NCBI GenBank assembly: GCA_944332485.1
Contig: CALVKB010000001.1
Location: 22,924-86,923, forward strand
Direction: 5' to 3'
DNA from: an uncultured Bacilli bacterium
GTDB lineage: Bacteria > Bacillota_I > Bacilli_A > RFN20 > CAG-288
Length of the DNA: 64,000 nt
Made by a program: the position numbers and the translations under genes. Within the stretch, counting starts at the first letter, position 1, and each line of letters starts with the position of its first letter. Positions 9,479-47,943 of this stretch are shown here, one piece after another. The notes beneath the pieces are model-generated. The model worked only from the letters and a program-made list of their open reading frames with translations, had not been told where the DNA came from and ran no database searches.

Positions 9479-11056
9479 ATGATTTATGTGATATTAGGCC
9501 AAACTGCTTCAGGGAAAACTTCTTTAGCTTTGAAACTTGCTAGAGAATTCAATTTGCCATTGATAAATTGTGATGCTTTTCAGTGTTACAAGCAGATGAA
9601 TATCGGAACTGCCAAACCAAAAAAAGAAGAACTTGAAAATGTTGAACATTATTTTATCAATAACGTTGATATAACCGATGCCATCAATGTTAAAAAATTT
9701 CAAGAACAAGGTAGACAACTTATAGATAAACTTACAAAAGAAAATAAAGACATCATCATTTCAGGTGGTACAAGTTTATATATTAGAGCTCTGTTATTCA
9801 ATTATGAATTCCCTGATATTGATAACAAAATATACGATGAATTATCTTTATACCCGTTAGATGAACTTTTAAAAATTTTGGAAGAACTCGATATTGAAAC
9901 ATACAATAACATCGACAAAAACAATAAAAGAAGAGTCGTAACAGCTGTCGCTTTGGCAAAAAATAATTTTTCAAGAGATGATCTTGTGAAAAAATTCAAC
10001 AATAAACCTTTATATCCTTGTTTGTTTTTCAATATTGATGTTGATAAAGAGGATATCAATGAAAAAATTGACTTAAGAGTTGAGACGATGTTTGTTGAAA
10101 ACTTAGTAAATGAAATTGAATATTTGATACAAAATTACGACTACAACAAACTCAACGCTTTTAAAGCCATCGGCTACAAAGAGTTCTTAAATTATATCAA
10201 TGAAGATAAAACAATCGATAAAAGTAAACTTGAACAAATCAAACAAGATATCAAAACACACACTCATCAATATGCTAAAAGACAAAGAACTTTTATAAAA
10301 ACTCAATTTTCCAATGTGAAAAATTTATCACCAGAAATGATATATTCTCGTATTATGATCGATCAAAGTATCAAACAAAGAACTAAATTGATGCTTGATC
10401 AAAAAATATTGAGCCAAATAGAAAATATGCATTTTTTAGTCTGTGGTCTTGGAGGTGTTGGTAGTTTGATACCTGAATATTTAGTAAGATTAGGTGCAAA
10501 AAACATCGATATTTTGGATTTTGACAAAGTTGATTTAACTAATCTAAACCGACAGATAAGTTACAATCTTGATGATGTTGGAAAAGATAAAATAGATGTT
10601 ATAAGTGAAAAACTTGCAAAGATAAATCCTTCAGTTAATATAACTTCACTGAAGATGAAATTAGATAAGTTTAATATGATAGACAAACAGTATGATTTTA
10701 TCTTCGATTGTATTGATTCAATTGAGGGAAAAGCATATTTAACTAAATATTCAATCGATAATAACATCCCAATTATTATAAGTGGCGGTGCTGGTAAAAA
10801 AATAGATTCCACCAAGACAAAAATTGAAAAGATAACAAAATCAAATGACGTTTTGATAAAAAAATATCTTGAATATTTAAAACCTATATTAACAAAAGAT
10901 GATCATCTAAATTCAATATATTGTGTTTGTTCGAATGATACAAATATCAAAACAAAAAATAAAACAATATCTTCAATCCCAACTGTCCCTAACAGTTTCG
11001 GTTTGGCCATGATATCATTTTTACTAAAGAGAATTGTAGGAGGTTTTAATATATGA
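9479..11056 (+). CDS. miaA: Fusion: tRNA dimethylallyltransferase MiaA (N) + TcdA/CsdL-type tRNA threonylcarbamoyladenosine dehydratase (ThiF/E1 fold, C)
   Basis: N-terminus has P-loop GQTASGKTSLA and YAKRQRTF (MiaA). From about residue 300: LVCGLGGVGS...DFDKVDLTNLNRQ...SGGAGKKIDSTK...CVCSND, matching E. coli TcdA (VVGIGGVGS..DMDDVCVTNTNRQ..TGGAGGQIDPT..CVFSTE). Confidence 0.8.
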   Translation: MIYVILGQTASGKTSLALKLAREFNLPLINCDAFQCYKQMNIGTAKPKKEELENVEHYFINNVDITDAINVKKFQEQGRQLIDKLTKENKDIIISGGTSLYIRALLFNYEFPDIDNKIYDELSLYPLDELLKILEELDIETYNNIDKNNKRRVVTAVALAKNNFSRDDLVKKFNNKPLYPCLFFNIDVDKEDINEKIDLRVETMFVENLVNEIEYLIQNYDYNKLNAFKAIGYKEFLNYINEDKTIDKSKLEQIKQDIKTHTHQYAKRQRTFIKTQFSNVKNLSPEMIYSRIMIDQSIKQRTKLMLDQKILSQIENMHFLVCGLGGVGSLIPEYLVRLGAKNIDILDFDKVDLTNLNRQISYNLDDVGKDKIDVISEKLAKINPSVNITSLKMKLDKFNMIDKQYDFIFDCIDSIEGKAYLTKYSIDNNIPIIISGGAGKKIDSTKTKIEKITKSNDVLIKKYLEYLKPILTKDDHLNSIYCVCSNDTNIKTKNKTISSIPTVPNSFGLAMISFLLKRIVGGFNI

Positions 11057-27451: not shown

Positions 27452-27536
27452 TGCCCGGGGCGGGAATCGAACCCGCATGGATGTTTAGTCCGCAGGATTT
27501 TAAGTCCTGTGCGTCTACCAATTTCGCCACCTGGGC
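27452..27536 (-). tRNA. tRNA-Leu (anticodon UAA), no encoded CCA
   Basis: Reverse complement folds as a cloverleaf with a long variable arm, T-arm GCGGGTTCGATTCCCGC and anticodon loop CUUAAAA. Confidence 0.8.
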
Positions 27537-27540
27537 AAAA

Positions 27541-27613
27541 TGACTCGCGGCAGGTTCGAACTGCCGACCCCTTGATTAAAAGTCAAGTGCTCTTCCGACT
27601 GAGCTAGCGAGCC
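27541..27613 (-). tRNA. tRNA-Lys (anticodon UUU)
   Basis: Reverse complement GGCTCGCTAGCTCAGTCGGAAGAGCACTTGACTTTTAATCAAG...GGCAGTTCGAACCTGCCGCGAGTCA; anticodon loop CUUUUAA. Confidence 0.85.
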
Positions 27614-27622
27614 ATGTATAAT

Positions 27623-27697
27623 TGGCTGGGGTACCTGGATTCGAACCAGGGCATAATAGAGTCAAAGTCTACTGCCTTACCGCTTGGCTATACCCCA
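27623..27697 (-). tRNA. tRNA-Gln (anticodon UUG), CCA encoded
   Basis: Reverse complement TGGGGTATAGCCAAGCGGTAAGGCAGTAGACTTTGACTCTAT...CCAGGTACCCCAGCCA. U1-A72 pair as in Bacillus tRNA-Gln. Confidence 0.85.
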
Positions 27698-27703
27698 ATT
27701 GGA

Positions 27704-27787
27704 TGGTGGGCGAGAGTGGATTCGAACCACTGAACCCGAAGGAACAGATTTACAGTCTGCCGCGTTTAGCCTCTTCGCTACTCACCC
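27704..27787 (-). tRNA. tRNA-Tyr (anticodon GUA), CCA encoded
   Basis: Reverse complement GGGTGAGTAGCGAAGAGGCTAAACGCGGCAGACTGTAAATCTGTT + long variable arm + GTTCGAATCCACTCTCGCCCACCA. Confidence 0.85.
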
Positions 27788-27823
27788 AGTTTTATCCAAG
27801 TAATTTAGTCGCGTGTTTTACTA

Positions 27824-27899
27824 TGGTGGATGTTGAGAGGCTCGAACTCCCGACCCCCACCTTGTAAGGGTGATGCTCTCCCAGCTGAGCTAAACATCC
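27824..27899 (-). tRNA. tRNA-Val (anticodon UAC), CCA encoded
   Basis: Reverse complement GGATGTTTAGCTCAGCTGGGAGAGCATCACCCTTACAAGGTGGGGGTCGGGAGTTCGAGCCTCTCAACATCCACCA. Confidence 0.88.
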
Positions 27900-33096: not shown

Positions 33097-35955
33097 TTAA
33101 ATAATCTTATATGATAATGGTTCAACTTCAGTTGGAACACCATTAACAGTAGGAGTGATTGTCTTATCTGAAAAGTTCATCAAAACATAGTAAGTCTTGT
33201 TTGTTGAAGGATCTTTTGTTGAGAAGCAAATAGACTTCAAATACTCCTCTTTGGTCAAGCCTAAAGAATTCATAGCAGTATTCGAACTATCAACGAAGAA
33301 ATCCATATTCGCATACATCTCATCGAAACTTGAATAACTAGGAAGATTGGAACGAAGTTGTAATTGATCAAATATTTTCATCTGTGAGTAATTTTCTGCT
33401 AATAAACTCCAGTCGATAGCATTAACTTCAACTCCAGTGTTGTATGAATTATGGACAAATGTTCTTTCAACATCGTTGATGATAGATTTGGTCGAATTAG
33501 AAATGACTGTTTGGTCACTCATAAAACGTTCGTTATCTGTTATCTCTTTGCTACGGAAGAACTCCTGTCCTGCTTGGATGAATGAAATACCATTTGTGAA
33601 CATGGTCAAAGCGTTCGATATCTCAGAAAGCTTCTTAGCGATACTCTCATCTTTAGCAGTTATCAAATATTTATCGTAAACTGTCAAATTATCATGACAT
33701 TCGACATAATTAACACTTGCTAACATATTACTTGTTGAATATGGAGTATAAACTTTATTTCCTAATAAGAAGTTTCTGCTTGGATTGCTATTTGTAATTC
33801 CAAAGATGATTTTGTCACGAAGATCGATGAAATTAGAAACTGAAACAGCATCTGTCATATCAAATCCTTCATAGGAATATTGAGCAAAACCTTTATCTTC
33901 TGCGTTGAAAACATTTCCTTTCACGGCATCTCTGAAAGCATCATTGAAAGCTCCAACATAGGAATTTGGATCACTTATTCTACTAAGATTTCCCTGAGTT
34001 GCCATTATGTAATTTTGCTCAGGAAGTTGATCTTCATTACCTTTATAATCGAACATCTCCCAACCTTCACCATAGATCAAAGCGTTAGGATTGATCTGAT
34101 GAACTTTTGAACTCACCATCTCCATGGTATCCAAATCGATAAGTCCCATCAAATCAAAACGGAAACCTTGAACACCGTAGTGAGAAACATAATGACATGT
34201 TGAATCAGCTATGTATCTTGCAAACATACTTCTTGTTGCATTCATATCACTACCAGCTCCAGAACCGTTTGATGTTCTAAAGTAATAATCAGGAACTATG
34301 TTATCGAAATTGGAATTAGTCTTGGATGGAATATGATTATAAACAACATCCATAGTGACACCTAAGCCATCGCTGTTGTAGGTTGTAACAACCTCTTTAA
34401 ATTCATCGATTCTTGCTAATGGATCCTCTTTATTATATGCGTAGCTTCCTTCCAATGAATTATAGTTGTAAGGATCATAACCCCAGTTGTAACCACCATT
34501 ACTAGTAGCGTTCATATATTCATCGCTTGTGTCTGTTTCATCAACAGATTTGAAATCATAAACAGGCATCAATTGAACGTGGGTTAAACCTTTTTCTTTC
34601 AATTCAAGTAAGTAGTTATAACCTATTGACTGTTTTTCAGAATTTTCTTTGTTGTAAAAAGCTGTTTTATCAATCAAAGCTTTGAATGTACCTTTATATT
34701 GTGGATTTTCAGTTTCAAAAGTATCTGATGAGCTGAAATCCTTAACGTGCATCTCATAAATTGTTGGTTTTGCTGAACTTATACTATTGGAAGTTTCAAC
34801 TTGTTGAGTAGTTAAAGCATGCTTTGTAAAGTCAACAACAACGCCATCAGTGGCATTCAATGTTACAGAATATGCATAAGGATCAACGATATTTGTTTTT
34901 GTTTCCCCATAGTTGGTGACTGAATAATGGTATAAACTACCATCATAAGCATCAGTTGTAACTTCATAGCATCCTTTGTTGACAGTAGATTTAGTCATTT
35001 GCAATTCTCTGTAGGTCTGTTCTGTTGGATTCTTGATGTACAATTTTACATCAGTTGCAATTGGTGCCCATAATCTGAAAGTTACTTCATTCAAATTTTC
35101 TGTAAAAATCGCGCCCAACTTAACGTCATCAGTTGGAGTATACATGTCTTCAAAAGTTTGAGATGAATAAAACTTCTGCATCGATAATGGAAGAATCAAC
35201 TCTTCGTTATTCTCATCTGTGTAAATTACTTCATATTTCTTCGTGATGTCCAAATAGTCAGTAGGTAAGATTGTTGTGGTGCTGAACTCATCGACAATCT
35301 TTTCAATTTCAACATTTGTTTTTGAAGTGACTTCTCTTATTTGTAAATCATCTTTAGTCAATTTCAAACTGGTGTCATTTTTATAAACTCTAACACCTTT
35401 ATTTGTTTGATTATTGCTGGTATATCCGTAATTTGCACCGTATAATTTGATACTTTGTATATCTTCTGGTGAGTAATAAACTTCGCCATCAACATAATAA
35501 ATATCACCATTGAACAATGTTGTATCCAAAATAAGATCATTAGTTTGAGTACCACCATCGCTTGTTCTTAAAATAAAACCTCTTGTTGGAGTGACAAAAT
35601 CCTCTCTTGAGATTGACTTAATAACACTTTCTGTGCTTCCGCCCCAGTCACTATACAAAGTATATTCAGTATCAAAAGAAAAACCAATTTTTGAGAAGGT
35701 TATATCGCAATCAGCTACTGTGACATCCTCTTCAATTGCCATATTTTTGAAAAGAACGCTCGAATTATCAACCTCATCATCCCAAGTCCAAATTGCGTCA
35801 AATACACTGTTATCTTTGGTGTAATAGTAAATGTTAACATCATAACCATCACTTGGTGTTGGAGTGCTACTGGTTGTTTGTTCTCCTTTAGAGCAGCTAG
35901 TCAACATTGTAGTTGCTAATAAAGGGAACATAAGTAATTTTGTAATTTTCTTCAT
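33097..35955 (-). CDS. pulA: Pullulanase (type I, GH13_14) lipoprotein, secreted or surface
   Basis: Signal peptide with lipobox LTSC. YNWGYDP, GFRFDLMG (region II), YGEGWEM (region III), YVECHDN (region IV). Confidence 0.9.
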   Translation of the reverse strand: MKKITKLLMFPLLATTMLTSCSKGEQTTSSTPTPSDGYDVNIYYYTKDNSVFDAIWTWDDEVDNSSVLFKNMAIEEDVTVADCDITFSKIGFSFDTEYTLYSDWGGSTESVIKSISREDFVTPTRGFILRTSDGGTQTNDLILDTTLFNGDIYYVDGEVYYSPEDIQSIKLYGANYGYTSNNQTNKGVRVYKNDTSLKLTKDDLQIREVTSKTNVEIEKIVDEFSTTTILPTDYLDITKKYEVIYTDENNEELILPLSMQKFYSSQTFEDMYTPTDDVKLGAIFTENLNEVTFRLWAPIATDVKLYIKNPTEQTYRELQMTKSTVNKGCYEVTTDAYDGSLYHYSVTNYGETKTNIVDPYAYSVTLNATDGVVVDFTKHALTTQQVETSNSISSAKPTIYEMHVKDFSSSDTFETENPQYKGTFKALIDKTAFYNKENSEKQSIGYNYLLELKEKGLTHVQLMPVYDFKSVDETDTSDEYMNATSNGGYNWGYDPYNYNSLEGSYAYNKEDPLARIDEFKEVVTTYNSDGLGVTMDVVYNHIPSKTNSNFDNIVPDYYFRTSNGSGAGSDMNATRSMFARYIADSTCHYVSHYGVQGFRFDLMGLIDLDTMEMVSSKVHQINPNALIYGEGWEMFDYKGNEDQLPEQNYIMATQGNLSRISDPNSYVGAFNDAFRDAVKGNVFNAEDKGFAQYSYEGFDMTDAVSVSNFIDLRDKIIFGITNSNPSRNFLLGNKVYTPYSTSNMLASVNYVECHDNLTVYDKYLITAKDESIAKKLSEISNALTMFTNGISFIQAGQEFFRSKEITDNERFMSDQTVISNSTKSIINDVERTFVHNSYNTGVEVNAIDWSLLAENYSQMKIFDQLQLRSNLPSYSSFDEMYANMDFFVDSSNTAMNSLGLTKEEYLKSICFSTKDPSTNKTYYVLMNFSDKTITPTVNGVPTEVEPLSYKII

Positions 35956-36028: not shown

Positions 36029-36997
36029 TTAAAATTTAGCCGATTTACAAAAACTTGAAAATTCTACATATTTTGATTTTTCAATATCATGAAAAATTTT
36101 CATTTTTTCCTTGTTGGGGTAAACGTTGTAATAACATATGTAAAGTTTTGCCCATAAATACCAAAAATAATCAAATAAAGCTTTCAAATAAGGGTATATT
36201 TCATTTATGAAAATATCATAATGCTTTGAAGCTTCTATTTGTAAAATTTCATTTAAAAAGGAAGTTATGAATAGTTTGTTATTTTTTAAAAGATTCACAT
36301 CGTTAAGTTTGTTTTCATAATAGAAAGTTTGTTCTGATAAGTAACTTACTAAGCTGTAAATTAATTCGGTATGATACAAAAAATCGTAGTCAATTAAGAA
36401 AACTTTATTTTTTGGTGTCACTAAAATATTGGATTCAATCAAATCAAGATGGGTTAAACCTTGAGTGAAAAATTGAGGATATTTTATTTTTAATTCACTT
36501 ATTTTGTTTATAAGTAGGCTTAATATTTCATCTTGACTTATATTAAGAATGCTATGATATTCATCAATTTCTTTGAATAAGTCAAAATAAAAAACAGTTC
36601 CATCATATTTTGATAAATACTTCAAATTGTCTATTATCTTTACTAGAGTATTATCAAAATTATCATTTAATTGTGATATTTTTCTTGAATTAACATTTTT
36701 TGTAATTAAACAAAAGTTTCTTTTAAATTTCTCGTATTTTATGATTATATTTTCATATTTATTCAAGTATTTAATAAGTTCAGCATTCAAAGGTTGACGA
36801 TGCAATTTGTCTAAAAATTTAATATCGAAAATTTCTTTGTTATCGATAAGTCCAACTTTATAAATTAAGTCTTTTTTAGTATCTAAAAATGAAGTGTTGC
36901 TTATGCCATCACCGAAGTATTCAAAAGATTCGCACTTAGAAATTTCACAATTACACAATTTACTTAAGTCAGAAAATAAAGCTTTTTCACCTTTCAT
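36029..36997 (-). CDS. Phosphotransferase-family kinase (APH/choline-kinase fold), substrate unknown
   Basis: Brenner-type catalytic motif LTHLDLIESNILV and IDYDF (DFG-like metal-binding) motif. Confidence 0.5.
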   Translation of the reverse strand: MKGEKALFSDLSKLCNCEISKCESFEYFGDGISNTSFLDTKKDLIYKVGLIDNKEIFDIKFLDKLHRQPLNAELIKYLNKYENIIIKYEKFKRNFCLITKNVNSRKISQLNDNFDNTLVKIIDNLKYLSKYDGTVFYFDLFKEIDEYHSILNISQDEILSLLINKISELKIKYPQFFTQGLTHLDLIESNILVTPKNKVFLIDYDFLYHTELIYSLVSYLSEQTFYYENKLNDVNLLKNNKLFITSFLNEILQIEASKHYDIFINEIYPYLKALFDYFWYLWAKLYICYYNVYPNKEKMKIFHDIEKSKYVEFSSFCKSAKF

Positions 36998-37667: not shown

Positions 37668-40052
37668 TTATTGTATTTTTTCAAATATTGAAGATAAGGG
37701 AGTTACAACAAATTCTCTATCTTCAATTTTTAATTTAAGTGATTTATTTGAAAAATTGAAACTTGATAAATATTCATTATTATCATCTTTCAAAATGTAG
37801 TTTACAGAATTTAAATAATCCTGTTTTGACAATCCAAATCTACCTTTTTTATCAAAACTCACATTCTCTTTCATCATCTTTATGTTAGGATAAACTGGCA
37901 TTTCGTTTTTTCTGTATGATAAGTATTTTTTGAATTGCTCAACGTACTCTTTGTATTTTGTGACATTATCCCAGTTGATAGCGTTGAGAATAACACCTGA
38001 TGCATATGAATTATGACAAAACACTCTTTTTGTTTCATCGATATTCAAAATGTATGATTGCGATAATGTAAATTCATCCTCAAGATATCTATTTTTCTCA
38101 TTTTCAGGTAAAGCAGTTACTTCCTTAGTTCTGAAAAATTCCTGACCGATTTGGTAAAAACTTATACCATTTGACAATAAAACTAAATTTGTACATAAGC
38201 TTGCAATCTTTCTTGCAATATTCTCATCATGTAAAGTTATGACAAGTTTATCAAACAAAGGGAGATTATCATGACATTCAACATAATTAACGGAGTTGAA
38301 GATATTATGTTCAGAATATGGTATGTAATTTTTGCATGAGATAAGTTCTTTTTTATTTGGATTACTATTCATAATTCCAAATACAATATCATCATGCATC
38401 TGTTTGATTAACTTAACTTCTTTTTTATAGTAACCTTTATAAACTTTCTGACAATATCCATCAACTTTACAATCGAAAACATGGCCTTTCATACCATCAC
38501 GGAATGTGTCGTTGAAAGCTCCAACACAACTATTTGTTGAATCCAAAAAATGCAAATTTTTCTGAATTGCCATCAAATAATCGTTACTTTCATCAAGCTG
38601 ATGAATATTTCCATTCGCATCAAACATATCCCAAGCTTCACCATAAATCAATGAATTTTTATTGATCTTATGAACTTTATCAGATAATTCTCTCATCGCT
38701 TGTAAATCAAGCAATCCCATCAAATCAAAACGGAATCCGGACATTCCGTAATTTTCAGTGAACATACAGCATGAATCGATGATGTATTTTTTGAACATCT
38801 TTCTTGTTGTATTCATATCCGCTCCAGCTTTTGAGGTACTTGATAAACGGAAGTAATAATCAGGTGCGAGCATCTCAAATTTGGAATCCAACTGACTTGG
38901 AACATGGTTGAAAACAACATCCATGATCACACCGACATTTATACTTGCGTATTCTTTTATTACACTTATCATCTCTTTTATTCTGCACAAAGGATCATTT
39001 GGGTTGGAACTGTAATGTGCTTCCAAACAATTGTAATTTAAAGGACCATAACCCCAATTGTAATTGTTGTGGGAAGTTTTCAAGATAAAATCCTTATCAA
39101 AATTATTCTCATGAGCACTTAAAAATTGATAAAAAGGCAATATTTGAATATGTGTCAAACCTTTTTCGCTCAATTCTTTCATGTAATCAAAACCGACTTT
39201 ATCACCATAGGAATTTTTGACATTTTTTTCAATTAATCCAAGATATTTTCCTTTAACTTCAGTATTCTTAGTTATGAAAGTATCAGACATTGAGAAGTCT
39301 TTAACATGAATTTCACAAACGACAGGTTTTGTTGTATAAAAGGATTTAATGTGTTCGAGTGTTTTATTATCTATTTTATGTTTATTCCAATCGATGAAAA
39401 CACCTAATGTTCCATTTTCCAAACACGAGTAACAGTAAGGATCAACCACATTTTCATATGTGATTCCAAAATTTGTTACAGTGAATGTGTATATGCTTAA
39501 ATCTTTAACTTCATTCAAAACAACTTCATAACAACCGTTATTTTGATAATTCATCTTATATTGCTTGAATTCATCATTTATATCGGTTTTCAAATTAAGT
39601 TTTACTTCAGTTGCAAAAGGTGCAAAAACTCTGAAATAGGTCTTGTTATTTTCATTGAAACTTCCAAGTTTATAATCCATATCAGGGGTGTATAAACTGT
39701 TAAATTCTTCAGAGGAATAATATTTATCAAAATATAATCTAGAGCGATATTTTTGATTTCCTGACTCGATTTCAAGAGTGTAAATTTTTCTAATATCCAA
39801 TTTGAAATCGATCAAAACTTCATAATATTCTTTGTGTTTTTTAATGTAATTAAGTTCCTTCACTTCAGAGGTTGAACATAGATGAATCTTATCGATATTC
39901 TTCAAATTTAGCTTAGTGTAAATTCTAATTGAGTTACAATCAACCTCAGAATGTTTGTAACCAAAAACACAATAAAAATCACTTTTTTCACGTTTTATTT
40001 GCACGTTTTTAACTTCATCCTGAATAACAGTTTCGACCTCTTTAAATTCCAT
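37668..40052 (-). CDS. Pullulanase paralogue (type I, GH13), no signal peptide, probably cytoplasmic
   Basis: YNWGYGP, GFRFDLMG, YGEAWDMF, YVECHDN. Preferred start MEFKEV at 40052 after AAGGTGG; the ORF track extends to 40106. Confidence 0.85.
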   Translation of the reverse strand: MEFKEVETVIQDEVKNVQIKREKSDFYCVFGYKHSEVDCNSIRIYTKLNLKNIDKIHLCSTSEVKELNYIKKHKEYYEVLIDFKLDIRKIYTLEIESGNQKYRSRLYFDKYYSSEEFNSLYTPDMDYKLGSFNENNKTYFRVFAPFATEVKLNLKTDINDEFKQYKMNYQNNGCYEVVLNEVKDLSIYTFTVTNFGITYENVVDPYCYSCLENGTLGVFIDWNKHKIDNKTLEHIKSFYTTKPVVCEIHVKDFSMSDTFITKNTEVKGKYLGLIEKNVKNSYGDKVGFDYMKELSEKGLTHIQILPFYQFLSAHENNFDKDFILKTSHNNYNWGYGPLNYNCLEAHYSSNPNDPLCRIKEMISVIKEYASINVGVIMDVVFNHVPSQLDSKFEMLAPDYYFRLSSTSKAGADMNTTRKMFKKYIIDSCCMFTENYGMSGFRFDLMGLLDLQAMRELSDKVHKINKNSLIYGEAWDMFDANGNIHQLDESNDYLMAIQKNLHFLDSTNSCVGAFNDTFRDGMKGHVFDCKVDGYCQKVYKGYYKKEVKLIKQMHDDIVFGIMNSNPNKKELISCKNYIPYSEHNIFNSVNYVECHDNLPLFDKLVITLHDENIARKIASLCTNLVLLSNGISFYQIGQEFFRTKEVTALPENEKNRYLEDEFTLSQSYILNIDETKRVFCHNSYASGVILNAINWDNVTKYKEYVEQFKKYLSYRKNEMPVYPNIKMMKENVSFDKKGRFGLSKQDYLNSVNYILKDDNNEYLSSFNFSNKSLKLKIEDREFVVTPLSSIFEKIQ

Positions 40053-40337
40053 AATTTCAACCACCTTTATAATACAATGATAAATATATATTTTTATTTT
40101 ATTCAATTCAATATTTTTATTTTTGAAATATTAATAAATTGTTAATTTGCTTTGTAATAGGTATCATAATTGAAAAAGCAATTTATTTACACTATATAAA
40201 AGTTGCTTTATAATTTTTACTCTATTCTTTATGTTATACAAAAACAACAAAAAACGTAAAAAATTTCTTCATAAATTAAAGTTGAAAATAATATTATTTT
40301 TATTTATATTTTATATGGTTATAAGGGAGTTTTAAGT

Positions 40338-41834
40338 ATGCCAAAATTTCATTTTTTAGCAACAGATGGTATGACTAAAATCGACGGTCATAAATATCCG
40401 CATTGTGACACTCCGATAATCAAATACGATCCTGATAAGGTCTACATTCAAGCAGTAGATAACAAAGGTCTTCCTCTTAGTGAGATGGTCAAAGTTAATG
40501 ATACTGTTTGTGTTGGTACAGTGTTAGGAATACGTAACGATTTCAATTTACCCGTTTACTCTTCAGTGAGTGGTAAAGTTGTCGCAATCGAAAAGAAAAC
40601 CTCCACAACAGTCGGAAGGTTAGTCGATCATTTTGTCATCGAGAATGACAAAAAATACACAAAAGTAAACTTGCCAAAACTTACTTCCAGAACTAAGGAA
40701 GCAGTGGTAGATTTACTCAAGAAAGGAAGCATCGTCGGTTTAGGTGGTGCCGGTTTCCCAACGTTCATCAAATACAATGTGAAACCTGGAACTGTCATTG
40801 ACACAATCTTAGTCAATGCGGTTGAATGTGAACCATATTTAACAACCGATTATGTGGAAGGTGCTAGAAGTGTCAACGATATGTTCTACGCTTTACCAAT
40901 TTTGATGGAAATCGTAGAAGCAAAACAAGCTATCATCGCTTGTAAAGAGAATAAAAAACACCTTATTGATGCAATCAAGAACGCTATCAATGAGCACAAG
41001 GAAGTCAATGCAAAATTGGTTTTAGTTAAAGACCGTTACCCGATGGGTTTTGAAAGAACACTCATCCGTGAAGTCTTAAAAAGAGAATATGAAGTTCTTC
41101 CAAGTGAATGCCACGTTATCGAAAACAACATTCAGACACTGGAAGCTGCTGGAAGACTTTTCAGAGATGGTGAAGTTATCACCAGACGTGTTATCACCAT
41201 CGCTGGTGAAGCTGTCGCAACACCAAACAACTATGATGTTCCAGTTGGAACCATGTTAAATGACATAGTTGTTAATAACGGTGGTTACAGCTGTGAGGAA
41301 GTCAAGGTTATCAATGGTGGTCCGATGTGTGGTAAAGCTGTCTTGACAACCGAAATACCAGTTTTACTTCAAACCGGTGGTTTCACAATCTTACATAGAT
41401 ATGACATCAAAGCTGAACCATGTTGGAAATGTGGTGCTTGCGTTGATCACTGTCCTATGGGATTACAGCCAGTGCAAATTCAGATGGCTATCAATAGAGG
41501 AGATGTCGAGCGTTGCCACGATCTCCAAGTTGAAAAATGTGTTGAATGTGGATTATGTTCATTTGTCTGTCCAAGTCATATCGATGTTTCCGCAAATGTC
41601 AGCAAAGCTAAATTGATGGCAAGGTTGAAATTCAAACCTGGTGTCAAATCACAAAAAGAAGAACAACGTGAGAAGATAAAAGCTTCACTTCAAAAATTCA
41701 AAGATCTCTTCAAAAAGAAAACTCCAGAGGAGAAAAAACTTATTGAAGAGAAGAAAAAAGAAGCAAAAGAAGCAAAACTTAGATCAAAACAACAAAAGCA
41801 AGAAGTTAAACAAACAGAAAAGGAGGGTAACTAA
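40338..41834 (+). CDS. rnfC: Rnf electron-transport complex subunit C
   Basis: GLGGAGFPT NADH/FMN site; two 4Fe-4S motifs CWKCGACVDHCP and CVECGLCSFVCP; Lys/Glu-rich C-terminal tail. Confidence 0.93.
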   Translation: MPKFHFLATDGMTKIDGHKYPHCDTPIIKYDPDKVYIQAVDNKGLPLSEMVKVNDTVCVGTVLGIRNDFNLPVYSSVSGKVVAIEKKTSTTVGRLVDHFVIENDKKYTKVNLPKLTSRTKEAVVDLLKKGSIVGLGGAGFPTFIKYNVKPGTVIDTILVNAVECEPYLTTDYVEGARSVNDMFYALPILMEIVEAKQAIIACKENKKHLIDAIKNAINEHKEVNAKLVLVKDRYPMGFERTLIREVLKREYEVLPSECHVIENNIQTLEAAGRLFRDGEVITRRVITIAGEAVATPNNYDVPVGTMLNDIVVNNGGYSCEEVKVINGGPMCGKAVLTTEIPVLLQTGGFTILHRYDIKAEPCWKCGACVDHCPMGLQPVQIQMAINRGDVERCHDLQVEKCVECGLCSFVCPSHIDVSANVSKAKLMARLKFKPGVKSQKEEQREKIKASLQKFKDLFKKKTPEEKKLIEEKKKEAKEAKLRSKQQKQEVKQTEKEGN

Positions 41835-41836
41835 CT

Positions 41837-43702
41837 ATGGTCAAAACTGCAATTCAAAATTCACCCCATCTCAGAGGTAAAAACTCGACCTTCAAGATGA
41901 TGATGGAATTTTTGATCGTCGTTAGCATTCTTTGGGTTTGTTCAATTATCTACTATTTTGTAGGTGATTTTGCAAATTATTACAGTGTCCAATACGGTCT
42001 TAAAGCCATCGGAATGGGTGTAAGCTGTGTTTTATTCGCATTTATAACCGATGCTATTTTCTATCTTCCTATCTTTTGGAAAGATGAGAAACGTCTCAAA
42101 CTTGCCAAAGGTGAAACAAGAGTTAAAAGTTACTTTAAGAAGTTGATTTTCAACTATTCTTACGTAACAGGTTTGTTGATTGCATTATTATTCCCAATCG
42201 GTACTCCTGTTTATGTATTATTTGTCTGTACTTTCATCTCCGTTTTCATCTTCAAAAATCTCTTCGGAGGTTTTGGAGCCAACATCTTCAATCCAGCTAT
42301 CATAGGAAGAGTTATCGGACAGATAGCATTTGCTGGCCAATTGAAAACATATCTTGGTGAAAATGCACCTACCTCTGAATTTTTAAACAGCGGTGCTTCC
42401 TTGACAAGCCAATTTGCTGGTACATCAAATTCAATCGGATATGGATTTAGCCAAATTTCAACTTTGAATCTTTTCATAGGAAATTATGTTGGAACCTTAG
42501 GTGAAACATTCGCTATTGTCATAATCATTCTCGCTGTTTATTTGATGGTTAGAAAAATCATCGACTGGAGAGTTGTACTTTCATTTGTTGTCACTTTCTA
42601 TTTGACATATTTCTTGATCAATCTCTGTTCTGGTAAAGGTGTGAATTCATTTGAGAATGCCTTTAGACAATTATGTGTCGGCGGTGCTTTGTTCGGTGCA
42701 GTATTTTGTTTAACAGACCCTGTTACAAGCCCAGTCAACAGAACCGGTAAGATAATCTTTGCAACAGGTAGTGCTTTGATTACTATCGTTATTAGAATTT
42801 TCGCATCTGCTCCTGAAGGAATGGCTTATTCAATCCTTGTTATGAATATGCTCGTCCCGATGATCGATTACTTCACAAGTGAAAGAACAAATAAACACAT
42901 GTGGAAAAAATACACCGCAATCTCAATCATCCCTGCTGCAAGTATCATATTAGGTTGTTCCTATGGTGGTGTTAATTATGTAGCTCCTGTCAAACCAGTT
43001 ACTCCTACAGGTGACGTGGTTTTATCAAAAATTAAAGTTTCAAATAACTATGCTGATTATGGCCATTATGAATTGAATGTCACTGTTGGTACAGATTTCA
43101 AGGTTTACCAAATTGAGATACTTACTCATTCATACACACTTGAAGATTCGTGGATTCAAGGTGGAAGTCATAGTCATGTGATGGAAACTGATTTTACAGA
43201 ATTTGTCAACACATATATTCCAACAGCTTCTAAAGCTATAAGTTTTGCAACTTACGATAATTGTTCATTAAGTGATATTAATAATATTCAAAGTAATTCA
43301 ACTGAAGCAACATATGGATTAGTTTTAGCTGTTCAAAAAGCTATCAATGAATACAAAGCTGAATATACAAAGATCACTGTCGATCATAAAGGTACACAGT
43401 ATTTCGATTCTTTCAGTGGAAATGTTTATATCAATGATGACAAAGTATATTACACTGAGATTACAGATGCTTCCATTGAAATGGATTGCACAATCGATGA
43501 ATTTTTAAATGGTGGCTCTCACACAACTGATACAAGTGTCGATTCAACTGAATTTTCAGAACGTTATATCAACCGTGGTGATGGTATTCCTTTCTCCGTT
43601 TTTGAAGGAACAAAAGTGACTGTAGCTGGTGCTACAATTACTTCCAGTGGATATATTGATTTTGTCAATGAAGCTATCCAACAATATAAAGCGAGCAAAT
43701 AG
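41837..43702 (+). CDS. rnfD: Rnf subunit D fused to about 260-aa C-terminal extension (extra TM + two repeat modules, the last with an FMN-binding-type VAGATITS motif)
   Basis: NqrB/RnfD core (about 350 aa, ends ...VMNMLVPMIDYFT), then an extra TM (AISIIPAASIILGCSYGG) and a soluble domain. That domain is paralogous to the C-terminus of the next gene (NVYINDDKVYYTEI...LNGGSHTT...VAGATITSSGYIDF). Confidence 0.85.
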   Translation: MVKTAIQNSPHLRGKNSTFKMMMEFLIVVSILWVCSIIYYFVGDFANYYSVQYGLKAIGMGVSCVLFAFITDAIFYLPIFWKDEKRLKLAKGETRVKSYFKKLIFNYSYVTGLLIALLFPIGTPVYVLFVCTFISVFIFKNLFGGFGANIFNPAIIGRVIGQIAFAGQLKTYLGENAPTSEFLNSGASLTSQFAGTSNSIGYGFSQISTLNLFIGNYVGTLGETFAIVIIILAVYLMVRKIIDWRVVLSFVVTFYLTYFLINLCSGKGVNSFENAFRQLCVGGALFGAVFCLTDPVTSPVNRTGKIIFATGSALITIVIRIFASAPEGMAYSILVMNMLVPMIDYFTSERTNKHMWKKYTAISIIPAASIILGCSYGGVNYVAPVKPVTPTGDVVLSKIKVSNNYADYGHYELNVTVGTDFKVYQIEILTHSYTLEDSWIQGGSHSHVMETDFTEFVNTYIPTASKAISFATYDNCSLSDINNIQSNSTEATYGLVLAVQKAINEYKAEYTKITVDHKGTQYFDSFSGNVYINDDKVYYTEITDASIEMDCTIDEFLNGGSHTTDTSVDSTEFSERYINRGDGIPFSVFEGTKVTVAGATITSSGYIDFVNEAIQQYKASK

Positions 43703-43713
43703 GAGGTTAATTT

Positions 43714-44820
43714 ATGTCAGAAGAATTGAAAGATAAAGTTAACAAAGAGGTTACTACCTCCCAAAATGAAGCTTCAAAAGACACTTCAAAAGAAAACAAA
43801 AAACAGAAAAAAGTGAAAAAAGCAAAAACAAAGAAACCTTTGAGCAATTTCATCTTATTCCCGATTGTTTTAGGTTCTGTATGTTTGATCTCGGCTGGTG
43901 CTATAGCTGGTATCAATTATTTAACTGAGCCAATCATCGCACGTAATGCTGAGAAAAAGTATCTCAAATCCTGTTACAAATTATTAGGTAACGAAAACAT
44001 CGACAAAACTCAAGGTACTGATGGTCTTAGTAAAGCTGATGTTCCAACAAGTGCCAGCTACATTTTGCAAGCTTACAAAGTCTTTGTCACCAGTGAATTT
44101 GCTTCAGCACATTCTGAATACTCCGATTTTTATTACTATGTCTTACAAACTCCATCCGGTTACAAAGGCAGTGTTACATTAGCTTGTATCATCGCTGGTA
44201 CATACGGAGAAGATGGCGTTTTGTATGATATGATGGCTATCGATACAACAAGTGAAGATGCACTTGGTGCCGGTCAACTTCAAAATGTGACTGTTAAACC
44301 TGGCTACACAGGTGAAGATGGTGATAATCTTTTAGATTCAGGTTACATCACCAGTGGTGCCACAGCAAAAGTCACTTTCAACGCTGTCGATACAGCTATC
44401 AAACAAGCTATCCAAGTGTTTGAAGGTAAGATTATCCCAACTATCGGTTATCAAAAAACTGAAGATGGTTATGAAATTTACTATAACGAACATAGTATTG
44501 AAAATATGACATACTCCAGTTTTACCGGATATGTCTACATCAAGGATGAGAAAGTCTACAATGTTGAAATTTTAAGTTCAACAAACACAATTGGTGCAAA
44601 AGATAACGCCTGGCTCAATGGTGGATCCTACAGTTATTACGAAGATATGTTAGATTTCACATCATTCTCCAACAAATATGTCAATGCAACTGATGGTGTG
44701 AGCTTCGATGTATTTTCAAGTGATCCAGTTTATGTTGCTGGAGCTACCCAAGCTACCGAAGGCTATGTTGAATTTATCAGAAGTACAATAGAATTGTACA
44801 ATGAACATCATAATAAATAA
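43714..44820 (+). CDS. rnfG: Rnf subunit G with additional C-terminal FMN-binding-like module (two SGAT-type motifs)
   Basis: K-rich N-tail, TM, RnfG/NqrC-like FMN_bind region with ITSGATAKVT. A second module YVYIKDEKVYNVEI...LNGGSYSY...VAGATQATEGYVEF follows. 368 aa, whereas RnfG is usually about 200. Confidence 0.8.
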   Translation: MSEELKDKVNKEVTTSQNEASKDTSKENKKQKKVKKAKTKKPLSNFILFPIVLGSVCLISAGAIAGINYLTEPIIARNAEKKYLKSCYKLLGNENIDKTQGTDGLSKADVPTSASYILQAYKVFVTSEFASAHSEYSDFYYYVLQTPSGYKGSVTLACIIAGTYGEDGVLYDMMAIDTTSEDALGAGQLQNVTVKPGYTGEDGDNLLDSGYITSGATAKVTFNAVDTAIKQAIQVFEGKIIPTIGYQKTEDGYEIYYNEHSIENMTYSSFTGYVYIKDEKVYNVEILSSTNTIGAKDNAWLNGGSYSYYEDMLDFTSFSNKYVNATDGVSFDVFSSDPVYVAGATQATEGYVEFIRSTIELYNEHHNK

Positions 44821-44831
44821 GGAGGTCGGAT

Positions 44832-45644
44832 ATGTCAGAAAATAAAATTAATACTGCTGATGTTGAAAAAAGTTCAGAAGTAGTGAACTCTGCTGAATCA
44901 ACTCAAAAAAGTGCAGTTAGTACCAAAGTTACTGATAAACCTAAAAAAGTGAAGAAACCGAATGAATTATTGAAAGTATTCACAAACGGAATCATCAAAG
45001 ATAATGCCTTGTTAGTGATGCTTCTTGGTTTATGTCCTTTATTCCCTTCAACAACCTCAATAAACAACGCTATTGGTATGTCAGTTGCTGTTTTGTTCGT
45101 TCTTTTCTTCTCGAACATCATCATCAGTTCAATACGTAAAATCGTACCAAGCAACATCCGTGTTCCTGTGTACATCGTTGTTATCGCAACATTGGTTACA
45201 ATCGTCGAATTGTTGATGAAAGCATTCACTGAGACATTGTATGAACAACTCTCAGTTTTCATATCTTTGATCGTTGTTAACTGTATCATCTTAGGAAGAG
45301 CCGAAGCCTTTGCAAGCAAAAACTCCGTTGGCAAATCAGCTTTGGATGCTTTAGGTATCTCAATTGGTTTTGCGATGGTTTTGCTTATTGTCGCCTTCTT
45401 CCGTGAAGTCATCGGTACAGGTGGAATAACATTTGTCAATCCATTCACCGGCGATACCTTATTCACATTCTTGCCACTTGCTGATTTTGCTGTTCCAGTA
45501 TTCGTTCAAAGTTTCGGTGGATTTGTCACATTCGGTTTAGTTTTGGGTGTCTTCACAACCATCACCATGTGGAACAACGACCGCAAGATGAAGAAAGAAC
45601 AAAAAGAAAAATTAGCTTTGCAACAAGCTAAAGGAGGTAAATAA
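44832..45644 (+). CDS. rnfE: Rnf subunit E
   Basis: NqrD/RnfE family LGLCPLFPSTTSINNAIGMS with six TMs. About 45-aa K/S/T-rich N-terminal extension. Confidence 0.9.
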   Translation: MSENKINTADVEKSSEVVNSAESTQKSAVSTKVTDKPKKVKKPNELLKVFTNGIIKDNALLVMLLGLCPLFPSTTSINNAIGMSVAVLFVLFFSNIIISSIRKIVPSNIRVPVYIVVIATLVTIVELLMKAFTETLYEQLSVFISLIVVNCIILGRAEAFASKNSVGKSALDALGISIGFAMVLLIVAFFREVIGTGGITFVNPFTGDTLFTFLPLADFAVPVFVQSFGGFVTFGLVLGVFTTITMWNNDRKMKKEQKEKLALQQAKGGK

Positions 45645-45646
45645 AA

Positions 45647-46252
45647 ATGGTATTTTTAACTACATTCATATCTTCCTTATTAGTTAACAACGTCATACTA
45701 AGTGGAACAAAAGGCCTTTGCTCCTACATCGGACTTTCCAAAGATAAAAAAGCAACTTTAGGTATGTCGATCGCTTTGATCGTCGTTTGTGTTTTATCAG
45801 GTTTGATCTCCTGGGGCTTAGCCGCTTTATTGACACTTATCAACGCAACTTATTTATCAACAATCGTCAGCATCCTTGTCATCGCATCATTTGTTCAACT
45901 TCTTGAGATTTTCATCAAGAAATTCCTCCCAAGTTTGTATAAATCATTGGGTATTTACTTGCCATTGATTACAACAAACTGTGTTGTTATGGGTTTGGCT
46001 ATTTCAATTTTCTCAACATACGCAAAATATATCGATGGTACTCTTAGCTCCCTTGATAGTGCTTTGACCATCCTTGGTATGATCTTAGCTTATCCATTAG
46101 GTTACTTCATGGTTATCTATGTCTTTGCTTTCATTCAAGAGAGAATTCAAAACAACAACGAAACTCCACGTGGTTTCAAAGGTGCTGCTATCGCTTTTAT
46201 CGCAACAGCTGCTATGTGTTTAGCAATTTACGGCTTCACCGGACTTGTTTAA
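45647..46252 (+). CDS. rnfA: Rnf subunit A
   Basis: NqrE/RnfA family; six TMs; 201 aa. Confidence 0.9.
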   Translation: MVFLTTFISSLLVNNVILSGTKGLCSYIGLSKDKKATLGMSIALIVVCVLSGLISWGLAALLTLINATYLSTIVSILVIASFVQLLEIFIKKFLPSLYKSLGIYLPLITTNCVVMGLAISIFSTYAKYIDGTLSSLDSALTILGMILAYPLGYFMVIYVFAFIQERIQNNNETPRGFKGAAIAFIATAAMCLAIYGFTGLV

Positions 46253-46267
46253 TAGAGGTTTGTTAAT

Positions 46268-46588
46268 TTGCTTTATAACTCAAATTTAAACTACCTTTGG
46301 ATGGTTTTGATAGTTTTGGGGGCTGTTGGTATATTTGTAAGTTTGTATCTTATAAATAAAAAAACTAAGCCTCCAAAAGACTGTCCGAAGAACATCGTCG
46401 GTTGCCAAGGTTGCATGCTTAACTGCAATAGAAGAGAAGAGGATTTCAATGTCAGTGATTATTTAAATCCTGATTTGACGAAAGTCAGATACGTGAAAAT
46501 TGAGAAAGTTAAAAAACTTAAAAAAGAGCAGTATATGCAAGAATCAGATAAACTGATGCGTGAAATTTTAAGTCAATATAAAAAGTAA
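46268..46588 (+). CDS. Small membrane protein with CPKNIVGCQGCMLNC cysteine cluster (TTG start after AGAGG, or ATG at 46301)
   Basis: One TM then C-x6-C-x2-C-x3-C. Sits between rnfA and rnfB, where no canonical Rnf gene is expected. Confidence 0.4.
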   Translation: MLYNSNLNYLWMVLIVLGAVGIFVSLYLINKKTKPPKDCPKNIVGCQGCMLNCNRREEDFNVSDYLNPDLTKVRYVKIEKVKKLKKEQYMQESDKLMREILSQYKK

Positions 46589-46599
46589 AGGAGAATTAT

Positions 46600-46929
46600 A
46601 TGTTACCAGTTTGGGCACAGATTGTTTTAGCAATTGTTGTAGTTGTTTTATTAGGTGTTCTTTTCAGTATATTGATCGCTGTTTTTTCAAAATACTTCGC
46701 TGTTAAAGAGGACCCTCGCAAAGAGAAAGTTATGTCTTTAATTCCAGGTGTTAACTGCGGTGCTTGCGGTCATCCTGGTTGTTCTGGCTTAGTTGATGCA
46801 TTGATCAGCGGCAAAGAAACACACGTCAAACAATGTAAAGTCATCAAAGATGACAAAGCTAATGAGATCAAAAACTACCTTAATGAAACTCCCGGACCTG
46901 ATGGTCAAACTTTGAAGGTAGATTTGTAA
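46600..46929 (+). CDS. rnfB: Rnf subunit B, minimal form (N-terminal membrane anchor + single Cys-cluster domain; no ferredoxin-type domains)
   Basis: FAVKEDPRKEKVMSLIPGVNCGACGHPGCSGLVDA...C aligns with the E. coli RsxB N-terminus ([35 protein letters not shown]). Stops after 109 aa with no CxxCxxCxxxCP dicluster region. Confidence 0.8.
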   Translation: MLPVWAQIVLAIVVVVLLGVLFSILIAVFSKYFAVKEDPRKEKVMSLIPGVNCGACGHPGCSGLVDALISGKETHVKQCKVIKDDKANEIKNYLNETPGPDGQTLKVDL

Positions 46930-46948
46930 TAAACATTTATATATCGAT

Positions 46949-47419
46949 ATGAAATTAAATTCCAAAGCAAAAAAAAGATACAACTTCAATTTTCAAGATG
47001 TCATCTTTATTTTGCTTGGAATTTTTTTAGTTATAAGTTTGTTGTTGTACACATTGTTCGGTATCAATAGAAACGTCAACGAGAACTCTTTTGTTGTTAT
47101 AACTTACGCTGGTACCGAAATTTACAACAGACCTATAACTGAAGAGAAGGACCCATTGGTCATAACAAAACAGATGGGAATAACAGGAGATCCCGAAAAC
47201 AATATACTTTCAATAGGTCGTGAGTTTGATTTTGTCGGACCAACTGTTGAAGTGAGAATCGTCGATATGACAATTCAGGTTGTTCAAGAGGATTCACCAC
47301 ATAAAATCTGCTCTAACCAAGGAGTTGTGAAATACGCCAATACCCCCATCATCTGCGAACCAAATTATATACAAGTTGTCATCGTTGATTACTCAAGTGA
47401 CAAACCGGACAATATGTAA
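46949..47419 (+). CDS. Membrane-anchored NusG_II-domain-like protein
   Basis: N-terminal TM. C-terminal SPHKICSNQGVV...PIICEPNYIQVVIV resembles the CP(D/H)KICV..G.I...IVCLPN.V.I signature of NusG domain-II proteins that accompany flavin transferases. Confidence 0.5.
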   Translation: MKLNSKAKKRYNFNFQDVIFILLGIFLVISLLLYTLFGINRNVNENSFVVITYAGTEIYNRPITEEKDPLVITKQMGITGDPENNILSIGREFDFVGPTVEVRIVDMTIQVVQEDSPHKICSNQGVVKYANTPIICEPNYIQVVIVDYSSDKPDNM

Positions 47420-47421
47420 CT

Positions 47422-47943
47422 ATGAACATAGAAAGAATCGTCAGAATAAGCTTATTTGTAGCTTTATCAACAGTTATACACTTTTTTGAATCGATGATTG
47501 TTATTCCAATTCCAATACCTGGATTCAAGTTGGGATTAGCGAATATTGTCGGTGTTTTTGTACTATTTTATTATGGTTATAAAGATTATGTCGGAGTTAC
47601 TTTTTTTAGAGTTTTGTTAGTTGCTATTTTGTTCAGTGGTTTTGGAACTGGATTTTTATTAAGTTTTGCTGGTAATTTATTCGCAGTATTAATAACAACT
47701 TTGATCTACTTTTTAACACGAAGTAGCATATTCAGTGCTTCTGTTTTAGGAGCTATATTCCACTCCATTGGTCAAGTGTTGATGTACATGCTTATCTCAC
47801 AAAGTGTTTATATAATCACATATTTACCATATTTAGCTATTTTAAGTATGCTAAGTGGTTTCTTACTAGCTTTGATATGCCGTATGGTATTAATAAGAAT
47901 GCCAGAATACAAAGACACAAGTAAGATAAGAAGAAAAAGATAA
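47422..47943 (+). CDS. Gx-transporter family membrane protein ('heptaprenyl diphosphate synthase component I'-like)
   Basis: Five or six TMs with glycine-rich GFGTGFLLSFAGN. Usually partnered with NusG_II and FMN-binding or ApbE genes. Confidence 0.65.
   Translation: MNIERIVRISLFVALSTVIHFFESMIVIPIPIPGFKLGLANIVGVFVLFYYGYKDYVGVTFFRVLLVAILFSGFGTGFLLSFAGNLFAVLITTLIYFLTRSSIFSASVLGAIFHSIGQVLMYMLISQSVYIITYLPYLAILSMLSGFLLALICRMVLIRMPEYKDTSKIRRKR

Follow-up and report, generated by a model that had tools for sequence, protein, structure and literature searches.

An RnfD subunit extended by a membrane helix and two diverged FMN_bind-like modules related to the RnfG C-terminus in an uncultured Bacilli bacterium

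Introduction

The Rnf complex is the main ferredoxin:NAD+ (nicotinamide adenine dinucleotide) energy converter in many anaerobes, and the flavins on its outer face normally form a closed relay. Here we describe an Rnf operon in a 64,000 nucleotide (nt) stretch of DNA from an uncultured Bacilli bacterium (GenBank assembly GCA_944332485.1, contig CALVKB010000001.1, positions 22,924 to 86,923 of the forward strand; this whole stretch is called the window below, and all coordinates refer to it unless another sequence is named), in which the RnfD subunit is extended at its C-terminus by a transmembrane (TM) helix and two modules. The modules are paralogues of the C-terminal module of RnfG and homologues of the FMN_bind domain, and the architecture is conserved in relatives. 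We favor, as the most probable of the explanations considered below, that the modules are extracytoplasmic relay domains with covalently bound flavin mononucleotide (FMN) that extend the outer flavin chain, likely as an electron side branch. The extended RnfD is genuine, recurs in relatives and is a variant of the multi-flavinylated Rnf theme. That theme is known from RNF gene clusters whose multi-flavinylated RnfG was proposed to offer electrons a second route, to acceptors outside the cytosol (Meheust et al. 2021, eLife, PMC8238504).

Results and Discussion

The RnfD extension and its paralogy to RnfG

The rnfD gene (41837–43702, + strand) is a single uninterrupted open reading frame (ORF) of 621 amino acids (aa), including the extension. 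Its canonical RnfD/NqrB core, residues 6–351 (41852–42889), matches Pfam model PF03116 with 224 bits (cutoff 27.7), and the NCBIfam RnfD/NqrB models reach no further than residues 351–355; NCBIfam TIGR01946 scores 173.9 bits, under its cutoff of 207, so this RnfD is a divergent member of the family. An original prediction, made from the sequence alone, held that the part beyond this core (42914–43702, which is residues 360–621 and the stop codon) has no canonical counterpart and consists of an added hydrophobic helix and two related modules, and the positions at which the family models end and the module alignments below agree with it on both counts. The 11th TM helix, residues 352–379 (42890–42973), is indicated by hydropathy (hydrophobic segment 361–379), by a predicted helix in the full-length AlphaFold2 (AF2) model with predicted local distance difference test (pLDDT) values of ~74–90 and by its presence in 117 of 120 homologues (below), and it is preceded by a basic stretch rich in Arg, Lys and His, ERTNKHMWKK. 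The two modules are called Dr1 (residues 394–510, 43016–43366) and Dr2 (residues 511–621, 43367–43699).

RnfG, encoded downstream (43714–44820, + strand; 368 aa), carries two flavin-type domains as follows: a TM anchor (residues 46–64) is succeeded by an RnfG-like N-terminal domain with an SGAT motif (Thr217) and then by the C-terminal module (residues 245–368, 44446–44817). Pairwise alignment finds Dr2 and the RnfG C-module 40.6% identical over 96 aa (E 6e-23; Smith-Waterman z = 25, a score reached by 0 of 500 shuffles), Dr1 and the RnfG C-module 31.8% identical over 88 aa (E 6e-10, z = 11.9), and Dr1 and Dr2 31.7% identical over 63 aa (E 3e-6, z = 8.1), while the RnfG N-terminal domain resembles none of the three (z < 0). 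The similarity is thus far beyond chance and not spurious, and the second RnfD module and the RnfG C-terminus are paralogous, as had been supposed. The GAT-Thr motif that was said to sit on both subunits is indeed VAGAT in Dr2 (within VAGATITS; Thr600, codon 43634–43636) and VAGAT in the RnfG C-module (Thr345). In Dr1 it is degenerate: the Gly-Ala pair is lost, leaving SNST in the context QSNST (Thr489, codon 43301–43303). The acceptor Thr is invariant across nine aligned modules, and GAT is present in seven of them, the exceptions being Dr1 of the window and Dr1 of the homologue P0001. The Gly-Ala loss in Dr1, the two flavin-type domains of RnfG and the commonness of the architecture in the clade (below) had all been missed by the original prediction.

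The further claim that the module was recently duplicated did not hold up. The copies are only 31–41% identical, both modules are already present in a relative whose RnfD is 96% identical, and there is no repeat at the nucleotide level, so the duplication is old. Recent duplication or gene conversion was considered and rejected, as the DNA repeats shared by the copies are short chance matches, none of them longer than ~36 nt.

Membership of the modules in the FMN_bind family

Are these modules FMN_bind domains? Direct matches to Pfam FMN_bind (PF04205), to the RnfG structure 7zc6_G in the PDB and to NCBIfam RnfG are weak, and all fall on the motif and the terminal helix. The best PDB sequence match is RnfG of Clostridium tetanomorphum, whose GATITS is aligned to the GATITS of Dr2; a PDB sequence search with whole RnfG gave chance matches only. 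A profile was built from the nine modules and used in an exhaustive hidden Markov model search of 1.84 billion representative sequences, in which only 17 proteins matched: the C-modules of RnfG from close relatives, several proteins that each have three to eight strong PF04205 domains, and a few unrelated repeat-rich proteins of the immunoglobulin-like and fibronectin types. The multi-FMN_bind proteins were matched with E-values of 2e-9 to 6e-4 (1.84e9 sequences). In a direct comparison by hhalign, the module profile and a canonical FMN_bind profile align over 73 columns with 95.3% probability (E 2e-8). The modules, at ~115 aa, contain a ~26-residue insertion (NGGSH...DFTxFSxxY) that separates the sheet from the motif.

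The AF2 model of Dr2 (pLDDT 82.7) has the antiparallel sheet and C-terminal helix of the FMN_bind fold, with the invariant Thr directly before the terminal helix 91–110, that is, at the helix N-terminus, and Thr164 of C. tetanomorphum RnfG occupies the same place before its terminal helix (PMC9588780). Foldseek searches ranked FMN domains at the top, though not significantly. The profile search, the hhalign comparison, the PDB match and the predicted fold outweigh the weak direct scores, and we conclude that Dr1, Dr2 and the RnfG C-module belong to a rare FMN_bind subtype that has diverged from the canonical domain. The larger modules found in two relatives, L001 and L006, may instead be of the FMN-bind2 type, a ~160-aa domain with insertions after beta1 and beta3 that occurs in even numbers and is predicted to form pseudo-symmetric pairs (Huang et al. 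2024, PMC10979944).

Recurrence of the architecture in relatives

An RnfD of unusual length could also have arisen from chimeric assembly, or from a frameshift that joined rnfD to a second rnfG-like gene, and length is all that speaks for such an origin. The same operon with the same single ORF is present in an independent ENA assembly (L003, a 136-kb contig), where RnfD is 622 aa long and 96% identical, and two Logan assemblies (L004 and L005) encode an RnfD that is 63% identical and has the same extra helix and one module, with an NGAT motif. Dozens of related extended RnfDs exist (below), base composition is even across the rnfD junction, and the rnfD–rnfG boundary is clean, with the TAA stop of rnfD, a GGAGG ribosome-binding site and the rnfG ATG at 43714. 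The occurrence of the same operon in independent assemblies shows that the fusion is genuine; the chimera that had been named as the condition for abandoning the original prediction is excluded by the recurrence of the ORF, and we assign a frameshift or chimeric origin next to no probability.

Recurrence was counted in the 120 closest RnfD homologues (P0001–P0120). The hydrophobic helix after the core is present in 117 of these, tails of at least 80 aa in 75 and tails of at least 200 aa in 53. Among the 75 with tails of at least 80 aa, 30 have an FMN_bind domain that Pfam detects, and 48 have the motif GA[ST] in the tail; across the 75 tails there are 77 such motifs where 23.5 are expected, a roughly three-fold enrichment, and most of these motifs stand in recognisable contexts such as GATYT and SGATFSS. 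The closest named relatives are metagenome-assembled genomes of uncultured Bacilli. Single-protein scans matched only a relative with 55% identity, which occurs in a human-gut metagenome, and a word-seeded protein search with the tail alone returned nothing even though the 96% identical relative is in the database searched, which we put down to the limited sensitivity of that search rather than to absence.

Membrane side of the modules

The canonical RnfD C-terminus (the last ~10 residues) is cytoplasmic, and FMN-RnfD and RnfG are extracellular (PMC9588780). A single added helix that follows a cytoplasmic C-terminus and has a basic stretch before it should place Dr1 and Dr2 outside the membrane, beside RnfG. 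The 11th hydrophobic helix is also found in 45 homologues that have tails of only 15–80 aa and no added domain, and an outward-facing RnfD C-terminus seems to be the norm in the clade. The idea that the extra helix is a captured RnfG membrane anchor, left from an ancestral fusion of rnfD with a second rnfG, was tried and not adopted: hhalign comparison of the helix-region profiles aligned nothing, on a segment too short for exclusion.

Evolution of the modules

In a tree of the modules the robust groupings are those of Dr1 and Dr2, each with its own P0001 orthologue, and a clade of RnfG C-modules; the deep nodes have less than 50% bootstrap support, and the grouping of Dr1 with the P0002 module is weak (44%). 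Judging from motif resemblance and this 44% node, Dr1 is likely the orthologue of the single module in the 63% identical relative, and Dr2 appears to be a separate lineage that is closest to the RnfG C-modules within poorly resolved deep nodes. If the orthology of Dr1 and the single module holds, then Dr1 lost its Gly-Ala in a lineage that has a second, intact module, and this loss is consistent with a change of Dr1 to a spacer.

Module types differ between lineages, yet of five other lineages compared, four have RnfD tail modules whose closest resemblance is to the RnfG modules of their own genome (33–65% identity), as follows: 39% in L004, 37–38% over two repeats in L001 (8001–11392 of that locus), 60–65% over 243 aa in L006 (7001–10449) and 33% in L007 (7001–9707). 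The fifth, L008, gave no match between the RnfD tail and its own RnfG at E 1e-3. This resemblance within genomes suggests either repeated copying between the adjacent genes or co-evolution of interacting partners.

Proposed function and alternatives

We propose that the added 11th helix would bring the normally cytoplasmic C-terminus of RnfD to the outer membrane face, where it would display two diverged FMN_bind domains. Dr2 (Thr600) and the RnfG C-module (Thr345) would most likely be flavinylated by an ApbE-type transferase encoded elsewhere, with flavin adenine dinucleotide (FAD) exported by the EetB-type transporter of the operon, and Dr1, having lost Gly-Ala, would now probably be mainly a spacer. 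The outer face would then bear four covalent FMNs instead of two. The extra flavins would lengthen the extracytoplasmic chain of RnfG-FMN and RnfD-FMN, and their most likely purpose would be a side branch linking the Rnf core to an extracellular electron acceptor or donor, as was proposed for multi-flavinylated RnfG.

The last gene of the operon (47422–47943, + strand) encodes an EetB-family protein (PF07456) resembling the S component of an energy-coupling factor transporter (ECF-S). In Listeria EetB is the FAD-exporting ECF-S subunit for extracytosolic flavinylation, and it is often colocalised with Rnf (PMC9973259). The relative L008 has a 494-aa ApbE directly after eetB (L008 12220–13704). 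The canonical flavinylation position of RnfD itself, in the five-helix linker, has a motif of the type [S/T]GA[S/T], namely LNSGAS, with Ser in place of Thr at the predicted site (Ser188, codon 42398–42400); the clade consensus there is TGAT/TGAS, and ApbE takes Ser as acceptor at lower efficiency (PMC12052999).

A number of observations weigh against covalent flavins and an exit branch. The recognition motif of ApbE is D-x-x-[S/T]-G-A-[S/T] (PMC12052999), and VTVAGAT of Dr2 and VYVAGAT of the RnfG C-module keep G-A-T but have no Asp at -6 and have Ala for Ser/Thr at -3; in ApbE motif mutants, Asp-to-Ala had a minor effect, and Gly-to-Ala or Ala-to-Val gave ~50% less flavinylation without abolishing it (PMC12052999). 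The modules are low-confidence in the full-length AF2 model. No apbE was found in the 64-kb window by Pfam searches of essentially all ORFs of at least 120 aa. Pfam FMN_bind scores are 14.8 bits (RnfD 594–615) and 12.3 bits (RnfG 271–358) against a cutoff of 22, and many of the extra modules of relatives lack GA[ST] and have SAT, SST, GSS or no motif. Ratios of nonsynonymous to synonymous substitution (dN/dS) relative to the 96% identical RnfD are 0.07 in the core, rising to 0.21 in Dr1 and 0.53 in Dr2; the modules are under constraint, but it is weaker than that of the core. Finally, the neighboring genes include none for a reductase or for any other obvious partner outside the cell.

Could the modules, then, be flavin-free relics of FMN_bind domains, kept as structural, spacer or surface-variable domains on a small and possibly wall-less gut bacterium? 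The low family scores, the motifs lost from Dr1 and from relatives, the raised dN/dS and the lack of apbE in the window would all fit such relics, as would the dS of Dr1 (43016–43366), which is 0.23 between the window and L003, 3–4-fold that of the remaining rnfD (0.05–0.07), although this may also be due to local recombination or a mutational hotspot. In Bacteroides, moreover, toxins are reported to be able to target RnfD/G surfaces that are exposed (PMC12718326). Relics without flavin do not readily account for an acceptor Thr that is invariant in all nine aligned modules and GAT in seven of them, for the identity of GATITS in Dr2 to that of C. tetanomorphum RnfG, for the three-fold enrichment of GA[ST] in the tails of the clade or for eetB in the operon, and we consider this explanation quite improbable.

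A serious rival, less likely than the side branch but more so than flavin-free relics, is that the extra flavin domains serve inside the Rnf cycle with no exit branch: Dr2 and the RnfG C-module would pair and thereby tether or position the mobile RnfG head, or would act as an electron buffer between the [2Fe-2S] cluster of RnfAE and FMN-RnfD. RnfG swings between RnfAE and RnfD (PMC9588780; PMC12174285), FMN-bind2 domains are predicted to form pairs (above), the operon has no gene for an external reductase, and the resemblance of tail modules to RnfG modules of the same genome in L004, L001, L006 and L007 fits co-evolving partners. That resemblance is explained equally well by repeated duplication between adjacent genes, however, and in L007 and L008 a long RnfD tail goes with an RnfG of a single domain, so pairing of the Dr2/RnfG type is not obligatory. 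We retain the electron side branch as the favored reading.

A broader version of it is that the Rnf of this clade of small-genome gut Bacilli has been rebuilt as an outward "flavin wire", in which RnfD and RnfG domains were repeatedly copied and paired across subunits, electrons derived from ferredoxin/NADH leave or enter the cell directly via the ion pump without quinones or cytochromes, and the truncated RnfB and a Cys-rich subunit (below) are part of the same remodelling. Taken as a whole this is speculative and we think it unlikely, a little more so than the intra-cycle role.

If the side branch is real, flavin domains on both RnfG and RnfD would let the pump give up or take in electrons at the cell surface, and the idea of a multi-flavinylated protein would be extended from RnfG to RnfD. 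Surveys of flavinylated proteins undercount such domains, since Pfam thresholds miss these diverged members. The resemblance of RnfD tails to RnfG within genomes is a clear case of neighboring genes that either exchanged domains repeatedly or co-evolved. With tails of at least 80 aa in 75 of the 120 closest RnfDs, the architecture is widespread in this uncultured gut lineage, which makes it a tractable target.

The remainder of the operon

A full rnfCDGEAB set is present as one + strand operon in the order rnfC-D-G-E-A-(small ORF)-B (40338–46929). The rnfC gene (40338–41834) encodes 498 aa with the Pfam domains RnfC_N, Complex1_51K, SLBB and Fer4; rnfE (44832–45644) and rnfA (45647–46252) both match PF02508. 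Between rnfA and rnfB lies a gene for a small TM protein of 106 aa (46268–46588) with a four-Cys motif, INKK...P..CP....GC..C.L.C, which matches no Pfam or NCBIfam family, is specific to the clade and is kept at the same position in six related operons; it could be an additional Rnf subunit peculiar to the clade, or else a piece split off RnfB. The rnfB gene itself (46600–46929) is short: its 109 aa comprise only a TM segment and the PF04060 Fe-S domain and align only to about positions 3–92 of RnfB models, so that the ferredoxin-docking polyferredoxin part is missing, and RnfB is equally short in six relatives. A NusG_II-domain membrane protein (46949–47419), a putative counterpart of Listeria EetA, follows rnfB in all relatives examined. 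The complete gene order rnfC, D, G, E, A, small ORF, short rnfB, NusG_II gene and eetB is kept in six of six relatives examined.

Other features of the window

Upstream of the operon, a 322-aa ORF (36029–36997, - strand) was considered as a candidate ApbE and rejected, as it is kinase-like (of the aminoglycoside phosphotransferase/choline-kinase type) with the motif HxDxxxxN...IDYD; in several relatives it also stands beside a PduL-type phosphotransacylase gene and the rnf operon. Either side of the phosphotransacylase gene are genes for proteins of 952 aa (33097–35955, - strand) and 812 aa (37668–40106, - strand), in which Pfam finds only CBM_48/GlgB_N at E <= 1e-4 and no glycoside-hydrolase catalytic part at that threshold. 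Five tRNA genes are clustered at 27452–27899 (- strand), and a 525-aa protein encoded at 9479–11056 (+ strand) is an unusual fusion of an isopentenyl pyrophosphate transferase of the MiaA type (residues 35–275) and a ThiF-family domain (residues 308–441).

Comparison with known systems

The definition of a multi-flavinylated RNF cluster by Meheust et al. (2021) calls for RnfB and a clustered protein with more than one FMN-binding domain. The operon has both, with a short RnfB, the domains in question being the two in RnfG and, in RnfD, the two modules together with the internal site. It is like the clusters with a multi-flavinylated RnfG (PMC8238504) in that an extracytosolic subunit of an Rnf operon has more than one FMN_bind-type domain, two in this case, and unlike them in that RnfD, which is the polytopic subunit that translocates ions, also bears extra domains, attached through an added TM helix. 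We found no description of an RnfD with outward-facing FMN_bind domains in the literature searched, and the extended architecture is already visible in precomputed Pfam annotations of database proteins.

The modules share with the PF04205 domains of RnfG, NqrC, PplA and multi-FMN proteins (7zc6_G, 8p2a, 8p2b) profile homology, predicted fold and the position of the acceptor Thr, and Dr2 keeps the GAT(I)TS signature; they differ in their ~26 extra residues, in the absence of Asp at -6, in Ala at -3 and in scoring under the Pfam threshold. NQR/RNF-like systems (PMC8238504, PMC10979944) are likewise built on an RnfD/NqrB core with a redox domain gained at its C-terminus. In those systems the addition is a cytosolic NAD-binding domain of the NqrF type (PF00175) and an RnfG/NqrC-like protein is the only other subunit present, whereas here the rnfCDGEAB set is full and the added domains are of the FMN_bind type and probably outside.

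PplA, Ndh2 and ApbE/FmnB genes are absent from the 64-kb window. The arrangement resembles the flavin-based extracellular electron transfer system of Listeria (PplA, FmnB, EetB; PMC9973259) in having tethered FMN_bind domains, which in our case would face outward, and an EetB-family gene alongside. It differs in that electrons enter the Listeria system via Ndh2 and demethylmenaquinone, whereas the domains described here are part of the Rnf complex itself.

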